64,000 nucleotides of DNA from an uncultured virus (IMG/VR IMGVR_UViG_2061766007_000682). Taxonomy: Duplodnaviria; Heunggongvirae; Uroviricota; Caudoviricetes. The notes under the pieces were generated by a model. It made no database searches, had not been told where the DNA came from, and was given only the letters and a program-made list of their open reading frames with translations. The stretch is taken from the IMG/VR virus record IMGVR_UViG_2061766007_000682, one strand, 5' to 3'. Position 1 is the stretch's first letter. Every line of letters begins with the position of its first letter. The position numbers were made by a program, and so were the translations under genes. Shown here one piece after another: positions 236-63,959 of the stretch.

Positions 236-255
236 GCTAATTATATTTTTAACTC

Positions 256-437
256 TTTAGAGGCTTTAATGGGGTGATCGGCAACTCACTTTCTGGGATT
301 TTATTGCCCACCTTAGCATAATCACTTGCTGTTTACTCCTTTTGAGATTTTACGTTCTTCCACCACATTTTATAATACTCGTACCCAATCCCATTATAAA
401 TGTGGTCTCAGTCGGTCACTCCACTAAAGCCTCTAAA
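256..437 (+). ncRNA. Putative structured ncRNA, copy A (~180 nt)
   Basis: 256-282 pairs with 411-437 (26 of 27 pairs, 3 G-U); internal hairpin CCACATTT(T)ATAAT/ATTATAAATGTGG; arms resemble 42682-42861. Confidence 0.65.
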
Positions 438-456
438 TAGAAGGTGGTGAATAATA

Positions 457-768
457 ATGGCTAATACCAAGAAATCGCCGCCCGCTTATACAGATGATGA
501 ACGAGAGAAACAGTTAATTGCCTTAGCTTATGATGAGGTTGAAAGGCGTATTCGCAACCATGAAGCAACATCACAAGAGCTTGTACATTTTTTAAAGATG
601 GGTTCCAGCCGAGAGAAGCAGGAACGAAAGATTATGGAAAAGAATGAAGAGCTACTTGGAGCTAAGACAGAATCTATACAGAATCAGAAGAGTACTGAGA
701 TATTTATGCAGGATGCTCTTCTTGCGTTTAAGGTTTATGCAGGTGATGAAGATGGACAGAAGCTATAG
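457..768 (+). CDS. Putative terminase small subunit
   Basis: 103 aa helical ORF with RBS AAGGTGGTGA, first gene of the packaging module. Confidence 0.5.
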   Translation: MANTKKSPPAYTDDEREKQLIALAYDEVERRIRNHEATSQELVHFLKMGSSREKQERKIMEKNEELLGAKTESIQNQKSTEIFMQDALLAFKVYAGDEDGQKL

Positions 769-1165
769 TGAACTGATAAAGTTAAATACATTAGAAGAAC
801 GATATCGTTATCTCAGGAACGCTCATCATGTAGGAGACCAGACACTGTATGGCTATCGTCCACTCTATCTTCAATTTCTTAAATCATCTCAATGGCTCTC
901 TGTAAGAGATCAAGTTATATTACGGGATAAAGGTTGTGACTTAGGTCTAGACGATTATCCAATAAGCGGGCGAATAATAATACATCATATAAACAGTGTA
1001 CAGATCGAAGATCTTGTAAACATGAATGAAGATGTGTTGTTAAATCCTGAGAACTTGATATCTGTTTCTCACACAACACATTTAGCTATCGATTATGGCG
1101 ATGAAAGTTTTTTACCTAAACCGCCAATAGTAAGATTGCCAAATGACACTTGTCCATGGAGGTGA
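752..1165 (+). CDS. HNH endonuclease (packaging-associated)
   Basis: W..VRD.VILRD..C, IIHHIN, NLISVSH.TH motifs; ATG at 752 after AGGTGA. Confidence 0.8.
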   Translation: MDRSYSELIKLNTLEERYRYLRNAHHVGDQTLYGYRPLYLQFLKSSQWLSVRDQVILRDKGCDLGLDDYPISGRIIIHHINSVQIEDLVNMNEDVLLNPENLISVSHTTHLAIDYGDESFLPKPPIVRLPNDTCPWR

Positions 1166-1170
1166 ATCTA

Positions 1171-1509
1171 ATGTCAGAGACATATGACTCTATACTTAAA
1201 TCTATTTGCGACAAATTAGATTCTCGGGACTATACGGTTTTTTACGATGATCTAATTTCTACCATCAACATGTGTTTTGCGTTCTGTCAGCAGTTTGGTT
1301 GCGGTCCTGAAGAAGGATTCGAAATCACTGGTGAAACTGAAACATGGGATGACTATGTTTGCAAGGATATTACTCAAAAGAATATGGCTAAGGCTTACAT
1401 TGCAGCCAAAGCCAAACTTACTTTTGATCCTCCTCAGTCAGGACCTATGCTTCAGAGTCTAGAACGTGAGATCACCAAGTATGAGTGGTACATTACAAAT
1501 TGCAGATAA
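1171..1509 (+). CDS. Head-to-tail adaptor-like protein
   Basis: SIL.SI...Y...KL.FDPP pattern; RBS GGAGGTGA. Confidence 0.55.
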   Translation: MSETYDSILKSICDKLDSRDYTVFYDDLISTINMCFAFCQQFGCGPEEGFEITGETETWDDYVCKDITQKNMAKAYIAAKAKLTFDPPQSGPMLQSLEREITKYEWYITNCR

Positions 1510-1523
1510 GGAGGTAAACTTTT

Positions 1524-1655: not shown

Positions 1656-1679
1656 TATTAGAAAGTGAGGAAAATCAAA

Positions 1680-3428
1680 ATGCCTTTATCTAATACAGCA
1701 ACACCCAAGTACTACGGACAGTTTAAAGCTAAAGTTCTTAAGGGAGAAATACCAATCAACAAGGAAATTGAGATGGAAATGAACCGTATCGATAAGTTGA
1801 TTGCTAACCCTGGAATTTATTACGATGAGAAAGCCGTTGAAGGTTGGATAAAATTTTGTGAAACTGAATTGACTTTGACAGATGGATCAGAAGTTCATAT
1901 GTTAGACTCGTTTAAATTATGGGGAGAACAAATCTTTGGATGGTATTACTTTGTTGAACGAACGGTCTATGAACCAGGTAAGAATGGTAGACCAGGACAC
2001 TACGTCAACAAGATGATTAAACGTAGACTGATTAATAAACAGTATTTAATAGTAGCAAGAGGCGCTGCAAAGTCAATGTATGCGTCTTTTATACAAGCGT
2101 TTTTTCTTACTGTTGACAGAACTACAACATATCAGATCACTACCGCTCCAACAATGCTCCAAGCTGAAGAAGTAATGTCGCCTATTAAGACGGCTATTAG
2201 TAGAGCTCCGGGTCCGTACTTTAAGTTTTGTACTGCCGGCTCCATTCAGAACACTACAGGTTCTAAAGCTAATAGACCTAAATTGTTTCCTAGTAAGGAA
2301 GGAATTAAATACACGATAACCAATTCAACTTTGCAAGTTAGACCAATGTCTATTGATAAACTTCAAGGTGCGAGACCGAAGATTTGCACTGTCGATGAAT
2401 GGCTTTCTGGAGATGTAACCGAGGACGTAATCGGCGCACTTGAACAAGGTGCAGCTAAAGGCGATCAGGAATATTTGATCGTTGCTATTTCGTCTGAGGG
2501 TACGGTTCGTAATGGTTCTGGTGACACTGTTAAAATGGAGTTAATGGAAATCCTTAAAGGAAATTACGATAATCCTCATGTATCTATTTGGTATTACAAG
2601 CTGGACGATATCAAGGAAGTAGCAAATCCCAATATGTGGATTAAAGCTAACCCTAATCTTGGAAAGACTGTTACTTATGAAACTTATCAATTAGACGTTG
2701 AAAGAGCCGAAAAAGCACCTGCAACTAGAAATGACATTCTTGCCAAAAGATTCGGTATTCCTATGGAGGGTTATACGTACTTCTTTAGATACGAAGAGAC
2801 ACTTCCTCATAGAAGAAGAGACTTTTGGAACATGCGATGCTCGCTTGGTGTTGACTTATCGCAAGGTGATGACTTCTGTGCATTCACATTTCTGTTTCCG
2901 CTTCCAAGAGAACAGTTCGGTGTGAAAGCGCGTAGTTACATTTCTCAAAATACATTGGATAAATTACATCTTGCACAGCGACAAAAGTACGATGAGTTTA
3001 TCAACGAAGGAACTTTAATAGTTTTACCTGGAACAGTACTTGATTTAAGAATAGTTTACGATAATCTAATTAAATACATTGAGGATTCTCAGTACGAAGT
3101 ATGTAGTATGGGATTTGACCCGTATAATGCTCGTGAATTTGTTGAATGGTGGGAAAAAGAAAACTCGCCATATGGTGTAGAAAAAGTAATTCAGGGAGCA
3201 AAAACAGAGTCGGTTCCATTAGGAGAAATTAAACAACTTGCTGAAAATAGATTACTTATATTTGATCAGTCAATAATGACATATACAATGGGAAATTGTA
3301 TAACAATAGAAGATACAAACGGTAATAGAAAGCTATTAAAGCGCCGCTATGAGCAGAAGATTGATAATGTTTCTGCTTTAATGGATGCTTGGGTAGCTTA
3401 CAAGTTACATAAGGAAGAATACGAGTAG
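1680..3428 (+). CDS. terL: Terminase large subunit
   Basis: Walker A variant ARGAAKS, Walker B TVDEW, nuclease GVDLSQGDDF and KIDNVSALMDA. Confidence 0.95.
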   Translation: MPLSNTATPKYYGQFKAKVLKGEIPINKEIEMEMNRIDKLIANPGIYYDEKAVEGWIKFCETELTLTDGSEVHMLDSFKLWGEQIFGWYYFVERTVYEPGKNGRPGHYVNKMIKRRLINKQYLIVARGAAKSMYASFIQAFFLTVDRTTTYQITTAPTMLQAEEVMSPIKTAISRAPGPYFKFCTAGSIQNTTGSKANRPKLFPSKEGIKYTITNSTLQVRPMSIDKLQGARPKICTVDEWLSGDVTEDVIGALEQGAAKGDQEYLIVAISSEGTVRNGSGDTVKMELMEILKGNYDNPHVSIWYYKLDDIKEVANPNMWIKANPNLGKTVTYETYQLDVERAEKAPATRNDILAKRFGIPMEGYTYFFRYEETLPHRRRDFWNMRCSLGVDLSQGDDFCAFTFLFPLPREQFGVKARSYISQNTLDKLHLAQRQKYDEFINEGTLIVLPGTVLDLRIVYDNLIKYIEDSQYEVCSMGFDPYNAREFVEWWEKENSPYGVEKVIQGAKTESVPLGEIKQLAENRLLIFDQSIMTYTMGNCITIEDTNGNRKLLKRRYEQKIDNVSALMDAWVAYKLHKEEYE

Positions 3429-3444
3429 AAAGGAGGTTATATTT

Positions 3445-4032
3445 TTGAGACACGATGAATTAGCACATTATGGTGTCCGCGGTATGAAATGGCGTTTCAA
3501 GAAAGGCATTACTGTTGATCCATCTAATAAGAATGTTAGAATTAAAAGACCTAATGGTGATGTTCGTGTTGAAAGAGAAAAGAACATTTCAATGACCGGG
3601 CCAAATCATAGATTAAGAACCTCCGAGAGAGATGTCGAAAAGAAAACAGAAAAAGATGAATTTAGTAAAATGGCTAATGAAGCGGCTGAAAAAGATAGAA
3701 AAGACCGTGAGGCTCGTGAGCAGTCAGCTAGAGATGCTTACGATGAAGCTTTGCGTTTGGCAAAAGAAAGAGCTGGTAAATCCAGCGGATCTGGTGGATC
3801 TGGCTCTAGTTCTTATAAAGCTGATGATAAACCTGCTGCAAATGCAAAACCGGCAGCTAAAGATAATAAAGGAAGTAATGAAAAGAATGCTTATTATACC
3901 AAGAATGCTAGAGAGATTGAGAGTCAGTATGGCATGAAGCCACACGTTAATGTAATGAACGATGTTGGTAAAGATCCTGAAAAGAAGCAGATTCTCAATG
4001 AAATGAATAAACGGACGTATAAAAAACGGTGA
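3445..4032 (+). CDS. LxH(H/Y)G-tag protein 1
   Basis: N-terminus ELAHYGVRGMKW; basic low-complexity body; TTG start after AAGGAGG. Confidence 0.75.
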   Translation: MRHDELAHYGVRGMKWRFKKGITVDPSNKNVRIKRPNGDVRVEREKNISMTGPNHRLRTSERDVEKKTEKDEFSKMANEAAEKDRKDREAREQSARDAYDEALRLAKERAGKSSGSGGSGSSSYKADDKPAANAKPAAKDNKGSNEKNAYYTKNAREIESQYGMKPHVNVMNDVGKDPEKKQILNEMNKRTYKKR

Positions 4033-4049
4033 GGAAGGAGGATAATAGT

Positions 4050-4655: not shown

Positions 4656-4670
4656 AAGGAGGGATGCTAA

Positions 4671-5414: not shown

Positions 5415-5427
5415 GGGGTGATATACA

Positions 5428-6186: not shown

Positions 6187-6201
6187 GGAGGTATTATATT
6201 T

Positions 6202-10429: not shown

Positions 10430-11107
10430 ATGACAAAGCTTCTTTGGGATCAGACCGGCGATAAGCTCTATTCCACTGGTGTTGACCGCGGCGTTCTTTA
10501 TGTGAACGATGGTACTGCATATCAGGATGGCGTAGCTTGGAACGGTCTTACATCCTTCCAGACGTCGTCTGATGGCGGTACGGCTAATGCTATCTATGCC
10601 GACAATATTAAGTATCTCAACCTCATTGCAACTGAGGATAAGAAGGGTACTATTAAGTGCTATACTTATCCAGATGAATGGGAAGAGTGCAACGGTAAGC
10701 GCACAATCACTGGTGCAACTGGTCTTTATGTAAACCAGCAGTCCAGAAGAACTTTCGGTTTCTCTTGCCGCACTCTTATCGGTAACGATACTGAAGGTAC
10801 TGATTACGGTTATAAGATCTATATCGTTTATGGAGCAACTGCTTCTCCGTCTGATGAAGAGTATCAGACAGTAAACGATAACCCGAACGCTATCGAGTTC
10901 TCTTATGAATTTAATACCGTTCCGGTTGACGTAGGTGTTACTGGCATTAAGCCGTGTGCTATCTTCGAGATTAAGTCTACCGATTTCACAAATGATAATG
11001 CCTCTAGACTTACTACTCTTGAAGACTTGCTCTATGGTACTGCTAATTCTGCTCCTACACTTCCTACAGTTACGCAGCTCATTAACATCCTTAGTGGAAC
11101 AACGTAA
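10430..11107 (+). CDS. Major tail protein, short copy
   Basis: WD..G...Y..GVDRGVLY, AWNGL, YADNIKYL motifs; biased codon usage of a highly expressed gene. Confidence 0.9.
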   Translation: MTKLLWDQTGDKLYSTGVDRGVLYVNDGTAYQDGVAWNGLTSFQTSSDGGTANAIYADNIKYLNLIATEDKKGTIKCYTYPDEWEECNGKRTITGATGLYVNQQSRRTFGFSCRTLIGNDTEGTDYGYKIYIVYGATASPSDEEYQTVNDNPNAIEFSYEFNTVPVDVGVTGIKPCAIFEIKSTDFTNDNASRLTTLEDLLYGTANSAPTLPTVTQLINILSGTT

Positions 11108-11122: not shown

Positions 11123-12013
11123 ATGACAAAGCTTCTTTGGGATCAGACTGGTGAGAAGCTGTACGCAACTGGTGTAGATAGAGGTGTTCTCTATGTTAAC
11201 GATGGTACTAATTATGGTACTGGTGTTGCATGGAACGGTCTCACATCTTTCCAGACATCTTCCGATGGTGGTACAGCTAATGCCATTTATGCTGATAACA
11301 TTAAGTATCTGAATCTTATCGCTACTGAAGATAAGAAGGGTACAATTAAATGCTATACTTATCCGAGTACTTGGGAAGAGTGCAATGGTAAGCGCGGTAT
11401 ATCCGGAGCAGTTGGTCTTTATGTTGGTCAGCAGTCTAGAAAGACTTTCGGTTTCTCTTGCCGTACTCTTATTGGTAATGACACTGAAGGCACCGATTAT
11501 GGTTACAAGATCTATATCGTTTATGGTGCTACAGCTTCTCCGTCCGATGAAGAGTATCAGACAGTAAATGACAACCCGAATGCAATCGAATTCTCTTACG
11601 AGTTTAATACCGTTCCGGTCGATACTGGCATTACAGGTATTAAGCCGTGTGCGATCTTCGAGATTAAGTCTACGGACTTTAATACAACTGCACTTCAGGC
11701 TAGACTTAAGGCCCTGGAAGACATGCTGTATGGAACTACTACATCGGATCCTACTCTTCCGACAGTAGCACAACTTATTTCTATTCTTAGCGGAACATCT
11801 GGTTACAAGCTTACACTTACACAGGGCGATGATACGACTCTGTCTGTAACTCGTGGTGCTACTGCTTTGGCTAATAATGCTGATATCGCACCTGGCGATG
11901 TTCTTACTATCACTGTAACTGGTGGTACTGTTACGGTCAATGGCGAGGCATTTACATCTGGTAATACTTATACTGTTGCCAGCAATGTTATTGTCGTGTC
12001 TACTAAGACCTAA
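11123..12013 (+). CDS. Major tail protein, long copy with C-terminal beta-rich domain
   Basis: Close paralogue of 10430-11107 plus ~70 aa Thr/Val-rich extension. Confidence 0.9.
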   Translation: MTKLLWDQTGEKLYATGVDRGVLYVNDGTNYGTGVAWNGLTSFQTSSDGGTANAIYADNIKYLNLIATEDKKGTIKCYTYPSTWEECNGKRGISGAVGLYVGQQSRKTFGFSCRTLIGNDTEGTDYGYKIYIVYGATASPSDEEYQTVNDNPNAIEFSYEFNTVPVDTGITGIKPCAIFEIKSTDFNTTALQARLKALEDMLYGTTTSDPTLPTVAQLISILSGTSGYKLTLTQGDDTTLSVTRGATALANNADIAPGDVLTITVTGGTVTVNGEAFTSGNTYTVASNVIVVSTKT

Positions 12014-31879: not shown

Positions 31880-31894
31880 AGGAGGATTATATTT

Positions 31895-33932: not shown

Positions 33933-33968
33933 AGGCATCGGATGAAAATCTGGTGTCTTTATTTTTTT
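33931..33968 (+). terminator. Terminator at end of the late region
   Basis: AAAGGCATCGGAT / ATCTGGTGTCTTT stem plus T-run. Confidence 0.8.
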
Positions 33969-33996
33969 CGCGTGGAAAACTGATGGTATTATAGAA
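33967..33996 (+). promoter_or_regulatory. TTCGCR-N17-TATRRAA element (first of the array)
   Basis: Same motif at 34201, 34416, 34773, 35353, 35623, 36063, 36672, 37382, 37564, 37902; gap-truncated at 35057 and 35738. Confidence 0.85.
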
Positions 33997-34019
33997 GAAC
34001 AATAATTGGAGGTGATCTT

Positions 34020-34181
34020 ATGACAAAATTAGAGAGATTGATGATCAGACTTGAAGGGATAGCTAAAAATACAGCTTTCTCTGAGAGATCAGGAATCAGC
34101 TATGATAAAGAAGGAACAAAGGAAGAACTGGAAAACATTATTGGAAAAATCTACGAAGAACTGGATAAGGTAGCGGAGTAA
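34020..34181 (+). CDS. Cassette microprotein (53 aa, helical), ends KVAE
   Basis: RBS GGAGGTGAT; stop codon lies in the loop of the downstream hairpin. Confidence 0.75.
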   Translation: MTKLERLMIRLEGIAKNTAFSERSGISYDKEGTKEELENIIGKIYEELDKVAE

Positions 34182-34242
34182 TATCTGCTCCTTATCTTTT
34201 TTCGCATTATATTCTAACCTTAATATGAAAGGAGGTGATAAC

Positions 34243-34398
34243 ATGAGAACATGCTCGAATTGCAAGTATTCTAAGGTGAATCACGAAGCAGATACTTTTT
34301 ACTGTAAAGTACACTGCGACGATACACCTAAGGAATACGGGGAGAACATGTACTGCGATTATCACGTGTTTAAACCAAGAAGAGAAGGCGCAGAGTAA
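34243..34398 (+). CDS. Cassette microprotein (51 aa, Cys/His-rich), ends EGAE
   Basis: RBS AAAGGAGGTGAT; C..C.Y...C...C..H pattern. Confidence 0.75.
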   Translation: MRTCSNCKYSKVNHEADTFYCKVHCDDTPKEYGENMYCDYHVFKPRREGAE

Positions 34399-34455
34399 TC
34401 TGCCCTTCTTATTTTTTCGCATTATATTCTGTCTCCTATATAGGAGGTGATAAGT

Positions 34456-34731
34456 ATGAACGAATTTGAAAATAAAGTAATAAATGGTATATTTGTTTCA
34501 CAATATGTAGCCGCATGGGTTAAAGAGTGTGGTGGATGTGAATATCATTACATCAAAAAAGATGGAAAGATAGAACGTGTTTGGCCGTTTAGAAAATGGT
34601 TAGAACAGCTTCTTATCAATGGAAGACATCTTACCGATGATGAGGTGAGATTCATAACCAACTTTGCAACTAACGGCAAATTGGAGTTGGAGGCAAATGC
34701 ACGACATTTTAATTCAGAAACAGAACCTTAA
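34456..34731 (+). CDS. Cassette protein, copy 1 of a duplicated gene
   Basis: FENK.INGI..SQYVAAW...NGKLELE; paralogue at 36347. Confidence 0.85.
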   Translation: MNEFENKVINGIFVSQYVAAWVKECGGCEYHYIKKDGKIERVWPFRKWLEQLLINGRHLTDDEVRFITNFATNGKLELEANARHFNSETEP

Positions 34732-34734
34732 GAT

Positions 34735-34774
34735 TAAGGAGGTTACGGACGAAAGTCCGGCCTCTTTATTTTTT
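34735..34774 (+). terminator. Type B hairpin GGAC-GAAA-GTCC
   Basis: Near-identical copy at 36635-36673; related hairpin at 54480. Confidence 0.8.
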
Positions 34775-34822
34775 CGCGCCAACTCCCGGGATCTATATAG
34801 AACATATAAGGAGGATAAAACT

Positions 34823-35017
34823 ATGAAAAAGGTTTATATTGTTACTTACAACAGAGTCGATGCTAAGGGCGTCGTAATCCTGAATGAGATTTGGCATGTT
34901 TCGTCAAGTCTTGGAAGAGCTAAGTGCTGGTGTTGGGATCACCGGCATGTAGAATATATCAACAAGAACGAGAGCGCCAAACTCATCATTGAGGAAGTCG
35001 AAGTCGACGATGAGTGA
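34823..35017 (+). CDS. Cassette microprotein (64 aa)
   Basis: RBS AAGGAGG; MKKVYIV...SS...A...IEEVEVD small phage beta-alpha-beta pattern. Confidence 0.75.
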   Translation: MKKVYIVTYNRVDAKGVVILNEIWHVSSSLGRAKCWCWDHRHVEYINKNESAKLIIEEVEVDDE

Positions 35018-35022
35018 GAGCA

Positions 35023-35058
35023 ATAAGGACGCAGAGTAATCTGCTCCTTATATTTTTT
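35023..35058 (+). terminator. Type A hairpin TAAGGA-C-GCAGA-GTAA-TCTGC-TCCTTA
   Basis: Identical core at 36247, 36861 and 37532; variants at 34165 and 34384. Confidence 0.85.
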
Positions 35059-35112
35059 CGCNNNNNNNNNNNNNNNNNNNNNTATAAAAATAATTTTTAG
35101 GAGGAAACAACT

Positions 35113-35274
35113 ATGAAAAACGAAATGGAAATGAAAAAGGATATGGTAACTCGGCTTAACAAGACCATTGAGGGACTGGAGAACCAGAAACTCAATGCGA
35201 AAAATGCTGAGGAATGGCAATTCCTTGACAAATTGGAACGTAGTTTTCAGGAAGAACTAGATGCAGTAACATAA
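35113..35274 (+). CDS. Cassette microprotein (53 aa, coiled)
   Basis: RBS AGGAGG; MKNEMEMKKDMVTRL...DAVT. Confidence 0.7.
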   Translation: MKNEMEMKKDMVTRLNKTIEGLENQKLNAKNAEEWQFLDKLERSFQEELDAVT

Positions 35275-35402
35275 AGGAATTATTATTCAATGATACGGAG
35301 CGTTAACAGCGCTCTTTATCTTTTTCGTTTACAAATCTATCTATTATATTTTTTCGCGCCAAAAACACACCTCCATATAGAACAACAAAGGAGGACAAAA
35401 CT

Positions 35403-35579
35403 ATGAAAAGAGCAATGTTAATTAAGTTGGTAGTTGGATGTATCATTCTTACATCTGGTTGTGGAGGAGACAAAACTGAAACAACTAAGAAGAAAGAAGA
35501 TAGACTTCCAAATGCCACTTATTGGGAAGATGTCTTGGTAGAAGAAACCTTAGTTGAAGAAACAATTATCGGGTGGTGA
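35403..35579 (+). CDS. Cassette lipoprotein-like microprotein (58 aa)
   Basis: MKR, hydrophobic stretch, lipobox-like LTSG-C; stop TGA lies inside the downstream hairpin. Confidence 0.7.
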   Translation: MKRAMLIKLVVGCIILTSGCGGDKTETTKKKEDRLPNATYWEDVLVEETLVEETIIGW

Positions 35580-35604
35580 AATATCCACCCTTTAATTTTT
35601 TTTT
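35571..35604 (+). terminator. Type C hairpin GGGTGG-TGAAATAT-CCACCC
   Basis: Identical copy at 37354-37383. Confidence 0.8.
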
Positions 35605-35649
35605 GCCGACAAACCTGGCACGGACGCGTTATATTCTGCTACTAATATG

Positions 35650-35730
35650 AAAGGATAATATTAGCTCAGTAGGGAGAGCACCGATCTAACAAATTGGAGG
35701 TCCTGGGTTCGATCCCCAGATTTATCCTTT
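35650..35730 (+). tRNA. tRNA-like RNA, anticodon AAC (Val), atypical acceptor stem
   Basis: D arm GCTC/GAGC, anticodon stem CCGAT/ATTGG with loop CTAACAA, T arm CTGGG-TTCGATC-CCCAG; acceptor stem extended and bulged, no CCA. Confidence 0.75.
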
Positions 35731-35794
35731 ATATTTTTTCGCGTAGAAAACGGTTCTNNNNNNNNNNNNNNNNNNNNNNNNNNNNNNNNNNATT

Positions 35795-36009
35795 ATGGGT
35801 TTTATTAACAAAATTTGGAATACAAAGTGTATGAGATGCGACGAAGAATTTCCTAAAACTCAGGCGCATTCTGTAGTAGTAGATACTAAACAGTATCTGC
35901 TATGCAAGAAATGTGCTTGGGATGTGGAAGTCCTGTTGCATTGTTCGCCACTTCCAAAATTCGGAGATGAAGGCGACATGAAAGTCATTCCATCAGAGAA
36001 TTCAAAAGA
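35795..36009 (+). CDS. Cassette zinc-finger-like protein (3' end in gap)
   Basis: CMRC...LCKKC. Confidence 0.6.
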
Positions 36010-36106
36010 NNNNNNNNNNNNNNAAATTAGAGATCGGACAAAAGTCTGGTCTTCTAATTTTTTTCGCATTATATTCTGTTATCAATATGAAAGGATGGTG
36101 ATAAAA

Positions 36107-36262
36107 ATGTTATGGTTGTTATTAGCATTTATAGTATGCCTTATACTCAGTATATCGAGTGAATATACATTCTTTATTGTATTGGGTATTGGTATAGGGT
36201 TGCTTATAGACTACATACCATTTGCAATAGCAATACTTTTGGAACGTAAGGACGCAGAGTAA
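36107..36262 (+). CDS. Cassette membrane microprotein (51 aa, 2 TM), ends KDAE
   Basis: RBS AAAGGATGGTGAT; hydrophobic; stop in hairpin loop. Confidence 0.75.
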   Translation: MLWLLLAFIVCLILSISSEYTFFIVLGIGIGLLIDYIPFAIAILLERKDAE

Positions 36263-36346
36263 TCTGCTCCTTATTTTTTTTTTTTTTNNNNNNNNNNNNN
36301 NNNNNNNNNNNNNNNNNNNNNNNNNNNNNNNNNNNNGGAATGTAAA

Positions 36347-36631
36347 ATGGACGAATTTGAGAACAAAGTTATAAATGGAATATTTACCTCACAGTATGTA
36401 GCCGCGTGGGTTAAAGAGCGTGGTGAATGCGGATATCATTACATCAAGAAAGATGGAAAGATAGAGCGTGTTTGGCCGTTTAAAAAATGGTTAGAACAGC
36501 TTCTTATCAATGGAAGGCATCTTACTGATGATGAAGTCCGATTCATTACGAACTTTGCCACTAACGGTAAACTAGAACTGCAGGCAAATGCACAACATTT
36601 TAGTTTTAATGACGAAATGGTAGAACCTTAG
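36347..36631 (+). CDS. Cassette protein, copy 2 of a duplicated gene
   Basis: Highly similar to 34456-34731. Confidence 0.85.
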   Translation: MDEFENKVINGIFTSQYVAAWVKERGECGYHYIKKDGKIERVWPFKKWLEQLLINGRHLTDDEVRFITNFATNGKLELQANAQHFSFNDEMVEP

Positions 36632-36715
36632 GGTTAAGGAGGTACGGATGAAAGTCCGGCCTCTTTATTTTTTCGCATCAGAATCATATCTCTATATGAA
36701 AGGATGGTGATTTAC

Positions 36716-36877
36716 ATGCTTATGTTTATTGGACTAATTGTACTGGTTTCAAAGTTATGTATAGCCCTTAACATACAAACAGAATATGTGATAGGGATTA
36801 TATGGGGGCTTGGAATCATGGAAGCTATAAACATGCATAGACTTGTTTTATACATGAAGTATAAGGACGCAGAGTAA
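36716..36877 (+). CDS. Cassette membrane microprotein (53 aa, 2 TM), ends KDAE
   Basis: RBS AAAGGATGGTGAT; MLMFIGLIVLV...YKDAE. Confidence 0.75.
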   Translation: MLMFIGLIVLVSKLCIALNIQTEYVIGIIWGLGIMEAINMHRLVLYMKYKDAE

Positions 36878-37187
36878 TCTGCTCCTTATTTTTTTTTTTT
36901 TNNNNNNNNNNNNNNNNNNNNNNNNNNNNNNNNNNNNNNNNNNNNNNNNNNNNNTAAACTGTAAACATCGTGATGAGTGTTGCTATAGAGGAGGCTATAG
37001 TGATCATAATTCATGGATGAGTTTACATGGCGGTATGAACCCGTATTCTGATCGTTGNNNNNNNNNNNNNNNNNNNNNNNNNNNNNNNNNNNNNNNNNNN
37101 NNNNNNNNNNNNNNNNNNNNNNNNNNNNNNNNNNNNNNNNNNNNNNNNNNNNNNNNNNNNNNNNNNNNNNNNNNNNNNNNNNNNNNN

Positions 37188-37346
37188 AAAAGGTTGTGGC
37201 TTACAGGTGTCATCATTCCCGTAGCAGGGATGTGTGTGACATTGTATGCTCACGTGCCGGAAGTACGAAGGGCTGTCAACGATATGCCTCACAATATCAA
37301 GAAGAGGGTGGCTCATCTTAAGAACCGCTTTCACAGAAAGGAGTGA
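37188..37346 (+). CDS. Cassette protein, 3' part (start in gap)
   Basis: Hydrophobic segment then basic tail; followed by type C hairpin. Confidence 0.5.
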   Translation, partial: KRLWLTGVIIPVAGMCVTLYAHVPEVRRAVNDMPHNIKKRVAHLKNRFHRKE

Positions 37347-37425
37347 AGTATCTGGGTGGTGAAATATCCACCCTTTAATTTTTCGCATTATATTCTGTCC
37401 TTTAGATGAAAGGATGGTGATTTAT

Positions 37426-37545
37426 ATGACTGGAATGAGAGATAGTATGAATGACTGTGATTTGAAAAGTAGTTACGAATGCTATTCTGGAATGAGAGAT
37501 AGTATGAATGATGACGACATTAAAGAATGTGAGGACGCAGAGTAA
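37426..37545 (+). CDS. Cassette microprotein (39 aa) with internal duplication, ends EDAE
   Basis: RBS AAAGGATGGTGAT; GMRDSMND occurs twice. Confidence 0.65.
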   Translation: MTGMRDSMNDCDLKSSYECYSGMRDSMNDDDIKECEDAE

Positions 37546-37630
37546 TCTGCTCCTTATATTTTTTTCGCGTCAGAATCGTACCTCTATATAGAACTGTAAG
37601 ATCTATATAACTTTTAAGGAGGAACTTATT

Positions 37631-37848
37631 ATGGCAAGTTTTAAAGAATCTTTTAAAAACGGTATGGCGAAGCAGGGCGGAGAAATGGCAGCAAGCGTTG
37701 TCCTTTCAGCAGCANNNNNNNNNNNNNNNNNNNNNNNNNNNNNNNNNNNNNNNNNNNNNNNNNNNNNNGAACTGATGAAACAACGCCGACACAGGAATCG
37801 GTAGAACTTCCAAAAGAGATCAAAGAAGAACAGACAAAAGAGCCGTGA
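37631..37848 (+). CDS. Cassette protein, paralogue of 37971-38195 (central gap)
   Basis: Shared leader and C-terminal ELPKE..KEE..KEP. Confidence 0.65.
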
Positions 37849-37970
37849 GACTCTATAAACTTCACATGAANNNNNNNNNNAGTCTCCTAATCTTTTTTAA
37901 ATTCGCGTGAAAAACGTATCTCTATATAGAACTGTAAGATCTATATACAAAAATTTAGGAGGAACTTATT

Positions 37971-38195
37971 ATGGCAAAAGTAACAGAAGACATGAAGAAC
38001 TTTGCAGCTTATGGCGTAGCTGCTGGACTTGCACTTGGCCTGACGGTTGGAGTGACCCACTTGGTCGCAAAAGCTGGAAGCGCTATTGCAAACAAGCACA
38101 CTGCTAAAAAGGCGGCAAAACTGGAAGAAAAGAAGAAGCCCGTAGTAACGGAGCTTCCAAAAGAAGTAGTAAAGGAAGAACAGAAAGAGCCGTGA
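37971..38195 (+). CDS. Cassette single-TM protein with charged tail
   Basis: RBS AGGAGG; Ala/Gly-rich hydrophobic helix. Confidence 0.75.
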   Translation: MAKVTEDMKNFAAYGVAAGLALGLTVGVTHLVAKAGSAIANKHTAKKAAKLEEKKKPVVTELPKEVVKEEQKEP

Positions 38196-38215
38196 GACTC
38201 TCAATTTCTCACAGG

Positions 38216-38256
38216 AAAGGAGATTGGATGAAAAATCTGATCTCCTGATCTTTTTT
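38216..38256 (+). terminator. Type D hairpin AGGAGATT.GA / TC...TCTCCT
   Basis: Related hairpins at 42641 and 45539, partial at 37881. Confidence 0.75.
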
Positions 38257-38285
38257 GCCTAATTATATTTAAGGAGGTGATTGAT

Positions 38286-42618: not shown

Positions 42619-42681
42619 TGAAGTTATCTACCAAAACAAAAAGGAGATTGGAATTATATTCTAGTCTCCTGATCTTTTTGA

Positions 42682-45530: not shown

Positions 45531-45602
45531 TATCTAAAAGGAGATTAGAATTATATTCTGGTCTCCTGATCTTTTTGAATTTTTATTAAAGGAGATGATT
45601 TT

Positions 45603-46820: not shown

Positions 46821-47903
46821 ATGTCAATTATTTGTAAGAAAGTATTAGTATGTAACAGATGCAGATGCGAAACGATAGTGGATGACGTCAAGTATATTGG
46901 AGCAGCGAATGTTAAACTCACAGCAGCTCCGCTTAATGAAAGATATCGTGTTCTTAGTCTTGATCATAATGATATTTGGGATTCTTTCTATCTCTGTGAC
47001 AAGTGCATGGATCTTGTTAGGTCTATCATTGACGGCGAGGATTATATTCTGCCTAAAATGGCTGAGAAGAACGAGAGACCGCCGGAGGACGACAAACCTG
47101 ATTTGAATCTGTATAAGAAACTGCCGGAGGATGAAGACACAGTTCCTACAGGATCTTGGCATGTAAAAGGACCTGATCCGGACGAGATGGAATTCGAGGA
47201 GATCGATTTCAATGAATCTGAAGAAGACGATGATCTTGATTCTGAGGAACCTAAGAATGAGCCGATTATTCGCAAATGGGATCCTTGTAAGGATAAGAAA
47301 CGTGAACGCATTGTATGGGACGATTATATTGTTAAGAAGATTGTCGATCTCATCAAGAAAGGTTGTAACAAAAAGCAGATTTGTACGGAACTTAAACTGA
47401 CGGACAAGCAGTATGCCAGTTTCTTGTACAAAGTTCGCAATCCGGAAGAAGTAGTTGGCGATAATACTAAATATGTTCGTTGGAACAAGATGTATAGTGA
47501 TATCTTCTCGGACTCAAATCCGCGCCAAAAGAGAAGACCATTTACCAAGTTTAATAAGATTGACAGTGACACAAAAGGAGAAATCATAACTGCGATTAAA
47601 GCAGGAAAAACAGAAGACAAAATTAGCGAAGAATTCAATGTTAGCAGAAGCACTATTTGGCTTATTAAACGTGAATTCGGTCTTATTTCTCGTAAGCTTG
47701 TTAAATCTGAAGAACGGTTCACTCCTAAACTTGTCCGCGAGATGTTCGAGGCTAGAAAAGATGGGATGGCTTGGAATGCTATAGCTCAAGTTCTTAACAT
47801 CCCGCAGTCAACCCTTAGTTTATTCGTCCGGAGTCTGCGCGAGGCAAAGCCCGGCGACTGGATGTACGATCTGGCTAAGGAATACGGTTACATCGATGAT
47901 TAA
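46821..47903 (+). CDS. Zinc finger plus multiple helix-turn-helix protein
   Basis: CNRC...CDKC, acidic linker, HTH-like segments ISEEFNVSRSTIW and IAQVLNIPQSTL. Confidence 0.7.
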   Translation: MSIICKKVLVCNRCRCETIVDDVKYIGAANVKLTAAPLNERYRVLSLDHNDIWDSFYLCDKCMDLVRSIIDGEDYILPKMAEKNERPPEDDKPDLNLYKKLPEDEDTVPTGSWHVKGPDPDEMEFEEIDFNESEEDDDLDSEEPKNEPIIRKWDPCKDKKRERIVWDDYIVKKIVDLIKKGCNKKQICTELKLTDKQYASFLYKVRNPEEVVGDNTKYVRWNKMYSDIFSDSNPRQKRRPFTKFNKIDSDTKGEIITAIKAGKTEDKISEEFNVSRSTIWLIKREFGLISRKLVKSEERFTPKLVREMFEARKDGMAWNAIAQVLNIPQSTLSLFVRSLREAKPGDWMYDLAKEYGYIDD

Positions 47904-57449: not shown

Positions 57450-57652
57450 AAATTCAATTTAAAAATGTCAAATTTTGTTGATATTTAGGCCGTTTACGGG
57501 CTTAATTTGTTGACAAACCTGGCACGAACGGCGAAAAAATGTCAAATTTTAAGTCAAAATATGTCAAAAATCTTTGATATTTTTGATAAAATTGTTGAAA
57601 AAACATGAAAAATTCATCAAAATTTGCACAAAATTGCACAAAACTGTTTTTA
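57450..57652. other. Putative replication origin region
   Basis: Non-coding, AT-rich, repeated (AT)GTCAAA and TTGA(C/T)A elements, upstream of the helicase-primase. Confidence 0.5.
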
Positions 57653-58065
57653 ANNNNNNNNNNNNNNNNNNNNNNNNNNNNNNNNNNNNNNNNNNNNNNN
57701 NNNNNNNNNNNNNNNNNNNNNNNNNNNNNNNNNNNNNNNNNNNNNNNNNNNNNNNNNNNNNNNNNNNNNNNNNNNNNNNNNNNNNNNNNNNNNNNNNNNN
57801 NNNNNNNNNNNNNNNNNNNNNNNNNNNNNNNNNNNNNNNNNNNNNNNNNNNNNNNNNNNNNNNNNNNNNNNNNNNNNNNNNNNNNNNNNNNNNNNNNNNN
57901 NNNNNNNNNNNNNNNNNNNNNNNNNNNNNNNNNNNNNNNNNNNNNNNNNNNNNNNNNNNNNNNNNNNNNNNNNNNNNNNNNNNNNNNNNNNNNNNNNNNN
58001 NNNNNNNNNNNNNNNNNNNNNNNNNNNNNNNNNNNNNNNNNNNNNNNNNNNNNNNNNNNNNNNNC

Positions 58066-59738
58066 TCCAAAGATTTGATGGTAAAAGGTTCTAAGTTCTA
58101 TGCTATATGGGATGAAGAAGCCGGATTATGGTCTACAGATTTATATGACGTTCAAAGATTAATTGATAAAGAACTCGATGACTATGTAGCCAAGAATAAT
58201 TTTGACACTAGAGTCAAGATTAGATATCTGGCTTCTTTCTCTTCACAGATTTGGACTACGTTCTTGAAGTATGTAGCTTCATGTCCTGACAATTATAAAT
58301 TGCTGGATAGAACAATTACGTTTGCTGATACACCAGTTAAGAAGAGCGATTATATTTCTAGGAAGCTTCCATATACTTTGAATGATATACCAACTCCAGC
58401 GTATGATGAATTAACAAATTCATTATATTCTCCTGATCAGAAAGAAAAGTTTGAATGGGTGATTGGATCGATAATAGCTGGCGATTCAAGAAAGATTCAA
58501 AAGTTTCTTGTGTTTTATGGAAAACCTGGAACTGGTAAAAGTACAATTCTTAATATTATACAGAAATTATTTGAAGGATACTTTAATTCATTCAATTCAA
58601 AAGCATTAGGAAATTCCAATTCTGAATTTTCAATAGAACCTTTTAGATTAAATCCACTAATTGCTATTGAACATGAAGGTGATCTATCGCATATTGAAGA
58701 TAACACGAGATTAAATAGCATAACGAGCCATGAACCGATAACTGTAAACTTAAAGCATAAATCTATGTACACTGATACATTTACGTCAATGTGTATTATT
58801 GGTACTAATAAACCTGTAAAGATTACAGATTCAAAGTCTGGTATTATTCGAAGACTAATTGATGTAAATCCTAAAGGTATTATTATTCCTGAAAAGAGAT
58901 ACGACGCATTATATCATCAAATAGATTTTGAGTTAGGTGGAATCGCAAAACATTGTTTGGATGTCTATACTTCACTTGGTAAAAATTATTACAAAGATTA
59001 CAAGCCGATTGCAATGATGCAGAAAACTGATGTATTCTTCAATTATATTCAAGAGTATTACAATGAGTATGCAGATGCAAATGAAGTAACATTGAAAAAA
59101 GCTTGGATGAATTATTTGGAATTTTGTAATAATACTAATATTAAGTATGACATGCCTCAGTATAAGTTCAGAGAAGAATTAAAAGAATATTTTGATGAAT
59201 TCCTTGAACAAACTACTATGGGAAATGGAATGCGAGTACGTAGTTTATATAGAGGTTTTAAGAAAGAGAAAATTTATTTAGAAGTAACAAAGCCTGAAAA
59301 AGATAAAACTAAAAAGAACGAGGCTAAGCCATGGGCATTTAATTTAAATAGCACAAAGTCATTGTTAGACAAAGCATTGGCTGACTGTCCTGCACAATAT
59401 GCAAAAGAAGATGGAACACCTGTGACAACTTGGAGTCGTAATATGTATATATTAAAAGACATCGACACAAAAGAGTTGCATTATGTGAAACCGCCTCTTA
59501 ATCATATTGTTATTGACTTTGACTTGAAGAACTCTAATGGCGAAAAAGATTTCNNNNNNNNNNNNNNNNNNNNNNNNNNNNNNNNNNNNNNNNNNNNNNN
59601 NNNNNNNNNNNNNNNNNNCATCTTCATTATATTTATCAAGGAGACCCAGAAATGCTGGCATCTGTCTATGATACAAATATTGAAGTAAAAGTATTTAAAG
59701 GTCGTTCATCTTTGAGGCGTAAACTTACTAAATGTAAT
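58066..59738 (+). CDS. SF3 (D5-like) helicase plus primase-like domain (5' end in gap)
   Basis: Walker A GKPGTGKS, GTNK, RRL; HIVIDFD and, after a gap, HLHY AEP-like motifs. Confidence 0.8.
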
Positions 59739-59775
59739 NNNNNNNNNNNNNNNNNNNNNNNNNGCGGTTGACAAA

Positions 59776-61863
59776 ATGGTAGATTTTACAGTATTAAAGA
59801 ATGAAGCAGCATTAGACACTTATATTCGTAAGTGCCTTAATAAGGAATATTCTCCACATGCGACTAAGCCAATGATAGATTATATTTATGACGCATTGCT
59901 TAAAGCATATGAATCAGGCATGGATTATGACATGTCTAAATGGTATTCTGATATTATGGCCTTCGGACAGAATAGTTCTCATAATGCTGATTATTGTGTA
60001 CGAAAAGTAGTTGAAATGAAATTTAAAGGAAAGAAGTATGAACAGCAGGAAGAAGTTCCAACTAAAATCTCGGATGGGAAATATGACGATGATAGACTTG
60101 TGTTCTTTGATATCGAAGTATTTCCTAATCTTTTAATGATTGTGTGGAAATTTAAAGACGATGATCATATGAATGTCCTTATTAATCCAGAACAAGAAGA
60201 AGTAAGACGATTGTTTCGTTTGAAACTTGTTGGATTCAACTGCCGTCGATACGATAATCACATTGTGTATGCTGCAGGAGCAGGGTTTACACTAAAAGAA
60301 TTATATTCTTTGAGCAAGATGATTATTAAAGAGCAAAAAGGATTTATTGTGCCAGCGTATGGATTGTCGTATGCTGACATTTATGACTTCTCGACTACTA
60401 AGCAAAGTCTTAAGCGATTTGAGATTGATCTTGGTATTCATCACCAGGAACTTCCATTAGATTGGAACAAACCTGTNNNNNNNNNNNNNNNNNNNNNNNN
60501 NNNNNNNNNNTGTAACGACGTTAGAGCAACTGAAGCAACATTTAATAAGTTGCAAGCTGACTATGATGCTAGATGTATTATTGCTGAGCTGGCAGGTTTA
60601 ACACCTAACTCAACAACAAGAGTTTGCACAGAGCATATTATATTTGGCGAAGACATGCATCCGCAAGATAAGTTTGTTTACACCGACTTGTCTACAATCT
60701 TTCCGGGCTATGTATTTAAATCCGGTAAGAGTACATATGCTGGTGAAGTAATCGGAGAAGGCGGATATGTATATGCTGAACCCGGTGCGTATGGCAAAGT
60801 NNNNNNNNNNNNNNNNNNNNNNNNNNNNNNNNNNNNNNNNNNNNNNNNNNNNNNNNNNNNNNNNNNNNNNNNNNNNNNNNNNNNNNNNNNNNNNNNNNNN
60901 NNNNNTAAATGGTATCTTGGTTCCATATATGTCTGATGAAGCAGCTTGTAAAAAATTAGCTTATGCTCTAAAGATCGTAATTAATAGCGTATATGGTTTA
61001 ACATGTGCATCATTTGAGAACAGGTTTAGAGACCCAAGAAACATTGACAACATTGTTGCTAAGAGAGGCGCATTATTCATGTGCACTCTTAAACACAAGG
61101 TTCAGGAAATGGGTTACAAGGTTGTTCATATTAAAACGGATTCAATTAAGATTGCAGAGCCAGATGAGACAATTATTAAATTCGTAACAGAATTTGGTAA
61201 ATCATATGGTTACTCGTTTGAGGTTGAACATGAATTTGAACGAATCTTACTTGTAAATGATGCTGTTTATGTTGGTAAAACTACAGAACCGGATGACGAT
61301 GGTCTTTATTGGACAGCAACCGGAGCTGAGTTTAAACGGCCATACATATTTAAGATGCTCTTTACTAAGCAACCAATTATATTCTCAGACTTGTGTGAAA
61401 CAAAGCAAGTGCAAACTGAGATTTATTTGGATTTTAATGAAGAGAATCCTGATAAGCATAGATACACTTTTGTTGGTAAGGTCGGATCATTCTTACCAGT
61501 CAGAGAAGGTTGTGGCGGAGGCTTACTTATGAGAAAAGTAAATGCTGATGACCAAATACCTGTTGACGTCTGGTTGGATGAGAAAGATGTTGTTGACGAA
61601 AAAGACTCAAAGAAATTTAATAAATTTGCGTCAGTAACAGGAGCAAAAGGGTATCGTTGGAAAGAGGCTGAACTCATTAAAGATGACTTCGAGTCTCAAA
61701 TTGATATGACATACTATAATAATATGGCAGATGAAGCAAAGAATCATATTATGGAATTCTGTGATTATGAACTGTTTGTTTCAGATGACGATTATATAGT
61801 NNNNNNNNNNNNNNNNNNNNNNNNNNNNNNNNAAATGAAGATTTACCATGGGACAACAATTAA
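59776..61863 (+). CDS. DNA polymerase (3'-5' exonuclease plus family B-like motifs)
   Basis: FDIEVF, GFN..YD, C.NDV..T; KIVINSVYG and KTDS; joined across gaps. Confidence 0.85.
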
Positions 61864-61892
61864 AACATTTAAAATTTTAGGAGGATTTAAAA

Positions 61893-62366
61893 ATGAAAAT
61901 TAAGGTAATGAGACCCGCAAATGGTGGAAGAGATGTTTATGTTATTCAGAATGCTCAGCTTAAGTATAAGAACTTTAGTGGCAAGCAGGGCAAGTTCCCA
62001 GGATCTAGATCGGTCAACGTTCTTGTTGATGCTGAGGATAAGGCAATGATGGAAGCAAAGGGTCTCAGAGTTAATGAGAGAACTAATCCGCATACAAACG
62101 AAGTTGAGTATACAATTAGAATTAATGTTAAGATGCTTCCTGGCAACTCTCCGAAGATCACTCAGAGAACTGGTAANNNNNNNNNNNNNNNNGAAGTAAC
62201 TGTAGAAGCTCTCGACAGTGTTTCCATCAGCAAGGCAGATGTTGCCTGGACTTACGGTTTTGGAACAGGAAATCCCGTTGCTTACCTTAAGGAAATGAAT
62301 GTGGTTATTGTTCCTTCCATCTTTGCACCGGATGCGAATGATTATTACATGGAGACCCATGATTGA
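61893..62366 (+). CDS. Putative single-stranded DNA-binding protein
   Basis: NA....KNFSG...R, LD...I..AD, AYLK.M; position in replication module. Confidence 0.6.
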   Translation: MKIKVMRPANGGRDVYVIQNAQLKYKNFSGKQGKFPGSRSVNVLVDAEDKAMMEAKGLRVNERTNPHTNEVEYTIRINVKMLPGNSPKITQRTGXXXXXXEVTVEALDSVSISKADVAWTYGFGTGNPVAYLKEMNVVIVPSIFAPDANDYYMETHD

Positions 62367-63577
62367 TTCACTTAGATGATTATCAGTTAGATGCGATTAA
62401 AAGGCTAAGGACTGGCTCCATTCTTTGTGGTGGAGTCGGTTCTGGCAAATCGCGAACTGCATTAGCATACTATTATATTCAGCAAGGAGGGTCTTTGGAT
62501 CCTTACTCTCCTATGGATTTTTATACGGCTAAGGATTTATACATAATAACTACGGCAAGAAAACGTGATACTTATGAATGGGAAGATGAAACAATTCCAT
62601 TTCTGCTAAACAAGGAAGACGATAAACACCGTAATTATATTTGTAACTACTATGTTGATTCTTGGAACAACATTAAAAAATATGCAAACGTTAAAGATTC
62701 ATTTTTCATCTTTGATGAACAGAGAGTAGTTGGATATGGTGCATGGACTCAAGCATTTTTAAAAATAGCAAAGAACAATGCATGGATTTTATTAAGTGCT
62801 ACACCTGGCGATTGCTGGTCAGATTATATTCCAGTGTTTGTTGCAAATGGCTTTTATAAAAATAAAACTGAGTTTACAAAAGAGCATATCATTTACAAGC
62901 CATTTAGGTCTTATCCTATAATTGATCGATATGTTAATACTAGGAAGCTTGATTATTTTAAAAGTAAAATTTTAATAGACATGGATTACAAAAGTCCAGC
63001 AACAGAAATTTATATAGATGTTCCTGTTTCATATGATAGAGATAAATACATNNNNNNNNNNNNNNNNNNNNNNNNNNNNNNNNNNNNNNNNNNNNNNNNT
63101 ATTGTAAATGCTAGCGAATATTGTAGTATACTTAGAAAGATTATTAATAGCGATAAATCAAGATCCGATGAAGTTATTAGATTATGCGAAAGACATAAAA
63201 AGGTAATTATATTTTATAACTTTGATTATGAACTCGAGATATTGCAAAATTTATTAACTGTGCATAAGATACCATTTTCCGAATGGAATGGTCATAAGCA
63301 TGAACCAATTTTGAAATCAGATCATTGGGTTTACTTGATACAGTATTCTGCTGGGTCTGAAGGTTGGAACTGCATAGAGACAAATGTAATTATATTCTAT
63401 TCACAGACTTATTCATATAAGCAAATGATTCAGTCAGCTGGAAGAATTAATCGAAGGAATACACCTTTCAAAGAATTATATTTGTATCGATTTAAATCTA
63501 AAGCAGGAATTGATAAGGCAATAACTCGAGCTTTGAACAACAAAGAAGATTTTAATGCCAGAAAGTTCTTCGCGTAG
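62363..63577 (+). CDS. SF2 (SNF2-like) helicase
   Basis: GVGSGKS, FDEQ, LSATPG, EG.N, Q..GR..R. Confidence 0.9.
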   Translation: MIHLDDYQLDAIKRLRTGSILCGGVGSGKSRTALAYYYIQQGGSLDPYSPMDFYTAKDLYIITTARKRDTYEWEDETIPFLLNKEDDKHRNYICNYYVDSWNNIKKYANVKDSFFIFDEQRVVGYGAWTQAFLKIAKNNAWILLSATPGDCWSDYIPVFVANGFYKNKTEFTKEHIIYKPFRSYPIIDRYVNTRKLDYFKSKILIDMDYKSPATEIYIDVPVSYDRDKYXXXXXXXXXXXXXXXXXIVNASEYCSILRKIINSDKSRSDEVIRLCERHKKVIIFYNFDYELEILQNLLTVHKIPFSEWNGHKHEPILKSDHWVYLIQYSAGSEGWNCIETNVIIFYSQTYSYKQMIQSAGRINRRNTPFKELYLYRFKSKAGIDKAITRALNNKEDFNARKFFA

Positions 63578-63598
63578 AAATCTAACTATATTATAGAA
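63569..63598 (+). promoter_or_regulatory. TTCGCG-N17-TATAGAA element
   Basis: Overlaps helicase stop; same spacing as array elements. Confidence 0.75.
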
Positions 63599-63665
63599 GG
63601 GGATACGTAGAGTGTGTCAAAAACATGCTCTACTGCCCTTTTTATTTTTTCAGGAGGAACAGCAA

Positions 63666-63959
63666 ATGAGGGAGTCAACTTTTAGAACTGGATTTATTAG
63701 AAAGCTCAGACTCTTAAGTCCAGACATCTTTGTTGAATTCGCAGACCCATCTCGGGTTAACGGAATTCCTGATCTGATTATTTTTTATCGAGATAAGCAT
63801 GCTCGCATAGAAACTAAGAGATCAAAGAACGCATCTAAACGATTGCATCAGGAACATTATATTCAGTTGTTCAATTCGTATGGTGTTTATTCGACTTTCC
63901 TTACACCAGAAAATGAGGAGGAAGTTTTAAATGAGCTTAGAAGGTATTTCCAACTATAA
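63666..63959 (+). CDS. VRR-NUC / Holliday junction resolvase-like nuclease
   Basis: ES.F, GIPDL, IETK, Q motifs. Confidence 0.8.
   Translation: MRESTFRTGFIRKLRLLSPDIFVEFADPSRVNGIPDLIIFYRDKHARIETKRSKNASKRLHQEHYIQLFNSYGVYSTFLTPENEEEVLNELRRYFQL

Follow-up and report, generated by a model that had tools for sequence, protein, structure and literature searches.

We analysed a 64-kb window, that is, the whole stretch of 64,000 nucleotides from the uncultured Caudoviricetes virus of IMG/VR record IMGVR_UViG_2061766007_000682, and found that the octamer ATTATATT occurs 83 times on its + strand and not once on the − strand, with copies spanning 240..63863. The enrichment and one-strand polarity of this word are confirmed as real and strongly selected, and the word is very probably a selected DNA site that is read by a phage protein. 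Runs of N aside, it is the top 8-mer of the window, and 100 dinucleotide shuffles gave 11.8 ± 3.4 copies for both strands together, with a maximum of 23. These counts bear out the first-pass annotation, which had estimated by eye at least about 70 copies on the + strand with no clear reverse complement and a higher density past 34 kb: 24 copies lie in the 33.4 kb before that point and 59 in the 28.4 kb after it. The shorter words TTATATT (109 on the + strand, 0 on the − strand) and ATTATAT (96 and 0) are one-sided too. The consensus in the window is (A)TTATATT(T/C); counts for single-base variants of TTATATT drop to 1–8, a leading A is favoured, and T or C comes next.

The word in coding DNA and across the phage family

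The 83 copies comprise 60 within genes, 21 in 6.2 kb of intergenic DNA and 2 at gene edges. Codon usage, which the first-pass annotation had named as a possible source of the counts, does not explain them: the 60 coding copies compare with 13.7 ± 3.2 expected when synonymous codons were shuffled with the proteins fixed and with 5.2 ± 2.4 when codon order was shuffled, and they occupy all three reading frames (19/28/13). The coding DNA of the window contains no AATATAA, against 11.2 ± 2.7 expected, and this heptamer and ATATAAT are the most depleted AT-only 7-mers (observed/expected, O/E, of 0.04 and 0.05; the 124 others have a median of 0.85). An mRNA signal would leave the reverse complement neutral, so its purge in the window disfavours an RNA-level option. 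In addition, 14 reverse-strand integrase genes of temperate relatives contain 30 main-strand copies against 20.9 expected and 3 gene-sense copies against 5.8. The word thus keeps to the main strand of the genome even in these genes, which points to a DNA signal and not an mRNA signal. These integrases are mutually related and hence not independent; the count leaves out L316 (motif-negative), the main-strand integrases of L304, L305, L306 and L312, and L319, which is a second integrase and lies beyond the motif-rich region.

The window belongs to the Lactococcus 1706/Oengus/actinophage BI-DJ-CC-AM-AU-AW-EL supercluster (Koert et al., bioRxiv 10.1101/842583), with which it shares a core of terL, portal, protease-capsid fusion, helicase and nuclease, the gene order and the rightward direction of all genes; every called gene of the window is on the + strand. 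Its terL is ~70% identical to those of Streptomyces BI and Gordonia DJ phages, and its polymerase matches 252 phage records, mostly of Arthrobacter, Gordonia, Streptomyces and Lactococcus phages. Nearly all words sampled from the window turned up in two sequencing runs of a single bovine gut sample, which is possibly its source. From 191 loci with a whole polymerase gene we obtained 101 non-redundant lineages, and enrichment was defined as z ≥ 3. Across these relatives the polarised core is ATATT(Y), with flanking bases that vary by lineage; in the window phage and most of its relatives a copy recurs at intervals of a few hundred bases. BATATTY reached the threshold in 93 of the 101 lineages (3,721 copies in total against 1,262 expected), and its antisense counterpart was under expectation in 87 of them (1,161 against 1,501 in total). 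This enrichment extends over lineages of 27–61% GC whose hosts belong to two phyla, which makes a phage-encoded reader likely.

The AT core is retained even at 60% GC, as in Rima, whose coding DNA has 80 sense copies against 5 expected and 2 antisense copies against 5. The corresponding observed and expected numbers are 106/31 sense and 2/30 antisense in Avazak, 141/30 and 6/32 in ReqiPoco6, and 55/7 and 2/12 in Camille. In 50 kb of Oengus, TGATATTT occurs 33 times on one strand and not at all on the other. An A directly before the core was never enriched, which fits an avoidance of the palindrome AATATT. In actinophages, a generic depletion of AT words (0.3–0.5) explains some of the antisense deficit, and the antisense purge is absent from Qui and CapnMurica. 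The lineages below the threshold are 1706, P078, Scap1 (in the polymerase-gene region only), Circum, L206, L047, L416 and L436; MT835495 was excluded as a motif-negative case because the replication arm is missing from its record. In 1706, the pentamer TGACC occurs 45 times against 15 expected and is raised in G011 too; it was rejected as a substitute word because 42 of the 45 copies share one frame, a codon-pair bias. An antisense sigma70 −10 box was likewise rejected: the window word reads AATATAAT on the − strand, but the relatives' cores GATATTT and CATATTC contain no TATAAT.

Conservation, spacing and position along the virion DNA

The core is under purifying selection over ~11 bp. In 53 independent, disjoint pairs at 78–96% identity, it was unchanged at 1,369 of 1,589 sites (86%), compared to 1,638 of 2,319 (71%) for control AT words, and the constraint spans −4 to +6 and then ends. 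Of the 19 window sites that could be aligned with a relative of ~72% nucleotide identity, 11 are retained there, and the relative shows two additional sites. The copies also keep a distance from one another. In the dense arm of the window the gaps are more regular than random (coefficient of variation 0.73, p 0.0008), the shortest being 46, 60 and 63 bp, and gaps of less than 60 bp number 14 against 106 expected when seven genomes are pooled. Spacing in Oengus alone was not significant, Rima and Camille reached significance for short gaps only, and no helical phasing at 10.5 bp was found in the copy spacing.

The word is also graded along the virion DNA. In virion coordinates, the excess is ~0 in the first 20–25% for most of 14 genomes, with Rima as the clear exception, and again ~0 in the last 5% for most of them; within the late/structural arm it climbs in 11 of 12 genomes tested (p < 0.05 in 6). 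Late and virion genes are low in copies in the window, Oengus and Avazak. The left arm of ReqiPoco6 has 14.7 kb without a copy; a specific purge there was rejected, because all AT-only 5-mers are low in this arm (median O/E 0.30). The RNA polymerase (RNAP) gene carries no copy in Rima, ReqiPoco6 and Avazak, and its density is below that of the DNA polymerase gene (pol) in 32 of 35 lineages (O/E 1.4 vs 3.0). Because gene order is conserved, position and gene class are confounded in these comparisons.

Candidate readers and rival explanations

The reading we prefer, tentatively and with less than even confidence, is that the reader is the family's single-chain YonO/RdRP-like RNAP and that the word is a short start or loading site. 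We infer that the RNAP reads the word, initiates at it and is delivered with the virion. An RNAP with two sigma4-like helix-turn-helix (HTH) domains would recognise ~11 bp of asymmetric sequence, open the duplex at the AT core and initiate rightwards, and many minimal start sites would let few RNAP molecules start or restart anywhere in the terminator-rich early/replication arm. A site would be useful only with useful genes downstream, so that nothing would be gained in the terminal RNAP gene and the gain would fade leftwards through the tail genes; antisense copies, or copies within one polymerase footprint (~60 bp), would carry a cost without benefit. The RNAP reading explains why the last gene is empty, why copies thin out leftwards and why GC-rich genomes keep an AT core, as well as the polarity and the footprint-sized exclusion. 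In a stronger form that we regard as unlikely, the copies would make up a distributed promoter lattice, in which footprint-spaced minimal start sites for a virion-delivered two-barrel RNAP are written into the coding DNA of the supercluster. Transcription would then restart every few hundred bases, keeping pace with the entering genome or helping to pull it in, and such a lattice, which may hold in phages of two bacterial phyla, would replace gene-by-gene promoters.

The family RNAP, which we take to be YonO-like, is RdRP-like with sigma4-like HTHs at its N- and C-terminus by Pfam scores, and DxDGD is present in all 25 RNAPs examined. HTH domains of this RNAP are also reported in passages of Koert et al. 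(bioRxiv 10.1101/842583). The RefSeq note on the 1706 homologue describes a structural protein, and most RNAPs of aligned relatives start with a DUF7211-like peptide that is shared with small head-region proteins and is a possible capsid-loading tag. In the window, seven proteins (at 3445, 4050, 4671, 5428, 30889, 31895 and 32988) start with such an L-x-H-[YH]-G peptide. The second enzyme of interest is the replication fusion of SF3 helicase, AEP primase motifs, helical bundle and PolB; 1706 gp55 appears as an SF3+AEP+PolB fusion in passages of PMC4889955. A model of the primase domain of relative L288 (mean pLDDT 89) resembles the pRN1 ORF904 and NrS-1 prim-pols (Foldseek E 3e-5 to 7e-4), and its top VIA match was NrS-1 6a9w (Z 9.9, root-mean-square deviation 3.5, 142 aligned). 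The genome encodes a pRN1/NrS-1-type prim-pol with a helix bundle, the structural side of this assignment coming from L288.

No reader was singled out by residue inspection, gene content or partial Mantel scans. Among 25 genomes, no gene family separated motif-positive from motif-negative members; of 12 sliding partial Mantel tests, run over pol with 101 and 39 taxa and over RNAP with 39, two were nominally significant (p 0.033 and 0.047) and were discounted; and the Atlas returned no family for two core proteins. A multi-HTH protein of the window (46821..47903, + strand) was considered and is unlikely to be the family-wide reader because it is not a core gene.

Several observations weigh against the RNAP reading. 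The orientation follows the genes served in the window and in most lineages, but not in Circum, DoctorPepper, Makai and Yotsuba. In these Arthrobacter/Curtobacterium members the antisense word is enriched (56 copies against 29.1 expected, 34 against 15.6, 34 against 16.8 and 13 against 3.7, respectively; the antisense excess of Uzumaki is weak, 23 against 16.5), and all four are enriched on the sense strand too (34 against 15.7 in Circum). Such two-strand enrichment is hard to square with promoters. The word is absent from phage 1706 although the RNAP is kept, and HTH residues are no guide to which genomes are motif-positive and which motif-negative. Beyond −4 to +6 we found neither an upstream element nor a signature of a start site, and actinophages show no preferred offset to start codons, so that neither a bipartite nor a fixed-position promoter emerges. 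The structural genes of Rima are as copy-rich as its early genes, and the copies of Scap1 are mostly in the tail region with few near pol. Moreover, the CGC-N17-TATAAT cassette has just as strong a claim to be the promoter, and the window does not contain the RNAP gene; in relatives, the Cas4-like exonuclease and RNAP genes come after VRR-NUC, which suggests that the window's own RNAP gene lies outside it.

The main competitor, possible but on balance doubtful, is a priming site for the fused AEP primase. Its helix bundle would read the word on the single-stranded template of the lagging strand, at a fork that mostly runs one way, and short Okazaki-like fragments would result; in lineages with the word on both strands, replication would then be bidirectional. 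Such a site would explain the frame independence, the lack of a flip in the integrases, the site turnover, the even spacing and the both-strand lineages, and the fold of the primase domain is that of two sequence-specific primases, pRN1 ORF904 and NrS-1 (described in passages of PMC8718748). Windows over the primase and helix bundle also had the highest correlation with motif strength, although it was non-significant (r 0.25–0.30, p 0.25). The end-poor gradient, including the empty 14.7 kb of ReqiPoco6, is left unexplained, however; copies do not cover the replicon evenly. The positive control failed too: the recognition sites given in the same source are those of NrS-1 (TTTGGTTA, GTG) and pRN1 ORF904, and the family primase shares the Prim-Pol fold followed by a helical bundle, but the NrS-1 8-mer occurs once in its own genome whereas the word forms a genome-wide polar array. 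Furthermore, the 53 pairs showed no one-sided substitution footprint or primer-side mutation excess beside the sites, the polarity is unchanged at the origin-like region, and the helix-bundle residues of motif-poor members are ordinary.

A landmark for packaging or virion architecture, bound over ~60 bp during packaging or ejection by the small terminase or by a basic protein inside the capsid, is less probable still. Density does track position along the virion DNA, an 11-bp site with a 60-bp exclusion suits a double-stranded-DNA-binding oligomer for which either orientation could be favoured, and in 18 of 27 regions, counted by eye, the cos hairpin has an ATATT within ~50 bp on its right, including the copy at 240 in the window. 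The cos link is weak, however: the cos copy belongs to a palindrome, AAAAAT-CCCCGGGG-ATTTTT, and is missing from ReqiPoco6, 1706 and others. The final 5% of the genome, in which the load on the motor would peak, is empty, and no such reader was found. We know of no precedent for a landmark of this kind. It is very unlikely that a phage protein on the word acts as a stoperator-like roadblock that stops elongation and silences early and middle genes: the word is oriented, dispersed and low in the late genes of the three genomes named above, but lytic members carry it, the late genes of Rima and Scap1 are copy-rich, and the 25 genomes held no gene family that tracks it. A programmed single-strand nick like those of T5 or tf, made perhaps by the HNH protein, would fit the one-strand bias regardless of gene direction and the avoidance of close pairs, yet 100–180 sites per genome far exceed known nick counts and both-strand lineages do not avoid opposite-strand neighbours (8 pairs against 7.6 in Circum), which makes this highly improbable. 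Least probable is an mRNA-level signal or a codon by-product. In Firmicutes-type members the copies do cluster in the AT-rich DNA that flanks the Shine–Dalgarno (SD) sequence on either side, but the word survives both codon shuffles, the opposite strand is purged and gene sense is ignored in the integrases, and this explanation is largely refuted.

Compared with known systems, the word is closest in some respects to the promoters of the P23-45 virion RNAP gp96, for which passages of PMC10770324 describe a short AT-rich motif at 14 start sites in one region. Each is a short, oriented AT-rich motif that recurs where a single-chain phage RNAP of the two-barrel type acts or, for the word, is proposed to act, but the word has 60–180 mostly intragenic copies and lies on both strands in some lineages. 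Like Chi and KOPS, it is over-represented, strand-polarised, intragenic and present in all frames; it differs from them in having no switch at the origin, a 60-bp exclusion and a gradient along the virion DNA, and the same core across hosts of two phyla argues that it is not a host motif. The stoperators of cluster A mycobacteriophages are asymmetric, oriented, dispersed sites of ~13 bp, mainly at intergenic junctions; they follow the direction of transcription, including that of leftward genes, and are bound by the immunity repressor of a temperate phage. The word shares their asymmetry, orientation and dispersal. It differs in its 5–8 bp core, its mostly coding location (60 of 83 copies), its three to five times higher number, its failure to flip in leftward genes (3 gene-sense vs 30 main-strand copies in the 14 integrases) and its presence in lytic members without integrase or repressor, of which Camille (cluster EL), strong in the word, is an example (as described in passages of PMC7302621). 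By most tested features the word is not a stoperator. The first-pass annotation had proposed an oriented binding site akin to stoperators or an RNA-level signal; the oriented site stands, while the RNA level and, on most tested features, the stoperator likeness do not.

The window genome and what the word may mean

A G-rich/C-rich hairpin at 193..247 (+ strand) resembles by eye the cos-site hairpin of the family and is followed by the first word copy (240), so the start of the window probably lies just left of cos. A long imperfect inverted repeat lies just right of this hairpin (248-445; ~250–290 vs 408–440). The following + strand genes encode a conserved 103-aa protein (457..768), a possible small terminase (TerS) and candidate reader by its position before the HNH and terL genes, for which the Atlas gave a weak T5 TerS lead (0.76) that is unconfirmed; an HNH endonuclease (722..1165, phrog_4321); and the terminase large subunit (1680..3428). 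Two major tail proteins (10430-11107 and 11123-12013) are tandem paralogues, as are two early proteins of 91–94 aa (34456-34731 and 36347-36631).

The placements listed in the first-pass annotation are real, two of its coordinates being off by one. Copies precede ribosome-binding sites at 38262, 44045, 49329, 54155 and 54567, and occupy the spacer between the SD sequence and the ATG in the portal gene (6193..6200, + strand) and likewise at 31886, 44980 and 48875. Two copies (42653 and 45550) are in the loops of terminator-like hairpins at 42642..42670 (+ strand) and 45539–45567. Four more (34206, 34421, 36068 and 37387, spanning 34206..37394 on the + strand) lie in the spacers of CGC cassettes, which combine a terminator hairpin, a promoter-like TTCGC-N16/17-TAnnnT and an SD sequence. 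The cassette is an element separate from the word. Cassettes occur at 33960-38270 and 63571-63605, where they head small early genes and the VRR-NUC/Cas4/RNAP operon, and a tRNA-like sequence (…GCTCAGTAGGGAGAGC…GGTTCGATCCCC…) lies in the same region at 35655-35720. The cassettes appear to be the 43–50 bp TATAAT-containing intergenic motif, with ~5 copies per genome, reported for the cluster DJ phages of the same family in passages of PMC9671010, PMC11008172 and PMC10868162, here with ATTATATT in four spacers.

At the right end, a non-coding A/T-rich repeated stretch at 57450..57653 precedes the polymerase gene and is origin-like by comparison with L288. Iteron-like inverted repeats, a likely origin in relatives, lie instead between the helicase and the VRR-NUC/RNAP operon (L003 44865-45309, L006 45149-45404, L005 44994-45289 and L002 26894-27766). 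The fusion of SF3 helicase, AEP primase, helix bundle and PolB lies at 58065..61903 (+ strand, with N gaps inside); its primase and helix bundle align with L288 at ~59280–60300, and the word copy at 59626 is within the codons of the primase HLHYIY motif. It is followed on the + strand by an ssDNA-binding/annealing protein and an SF2 helicase (61893..63577) and by a promoter-like CGC cassette with the VRR-NUC gene (63571..63959). Close to the att site, two temperate relatives carry ORFs that by eye resemble the reverse transcriptases of diversity-generating retroelements (L306 4825-6103 and L311 3845-5081).

The string ATATT does not occur in the text of the three cluster DJ papers, and a term search of the available passages of Koert et al. 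(bioRxiv 10.1101/842583) returned neither ATATT nor promoter. The word is not described in passages of bioRxiv 10.1101/2022.11.23.517428 either, nor was it found in full-text literature searches, whose scope excluded supplements and the original 1706, ReqiPepy6/Poco6, YonO and NrS-1 papers. The word is family-wide and apparently undescribed.

Phages of this lineage abound in the guts of animals and humans, and over 200 members are in culture and easy to handle. The two leading candidate readers are testable phage enzymes, the YonO-like RNAP and the helicase–primase–PolB fusion, both biochemically uncharacterised in this lineage, and the word provides a concrete candidate DNA substrate for either of them. 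Natural controls exist in phages where it is strictly polar (Rima and Avazak), on two strands (Circum and Makai) or absent (1706). If the RNAP reading is true, a minimal RNA polymerase would be served by a densely set lattice of promoters; if the primase reading is true, a primase site would be powerful enough to mould the choice of codons genome-wide. Either would be new.

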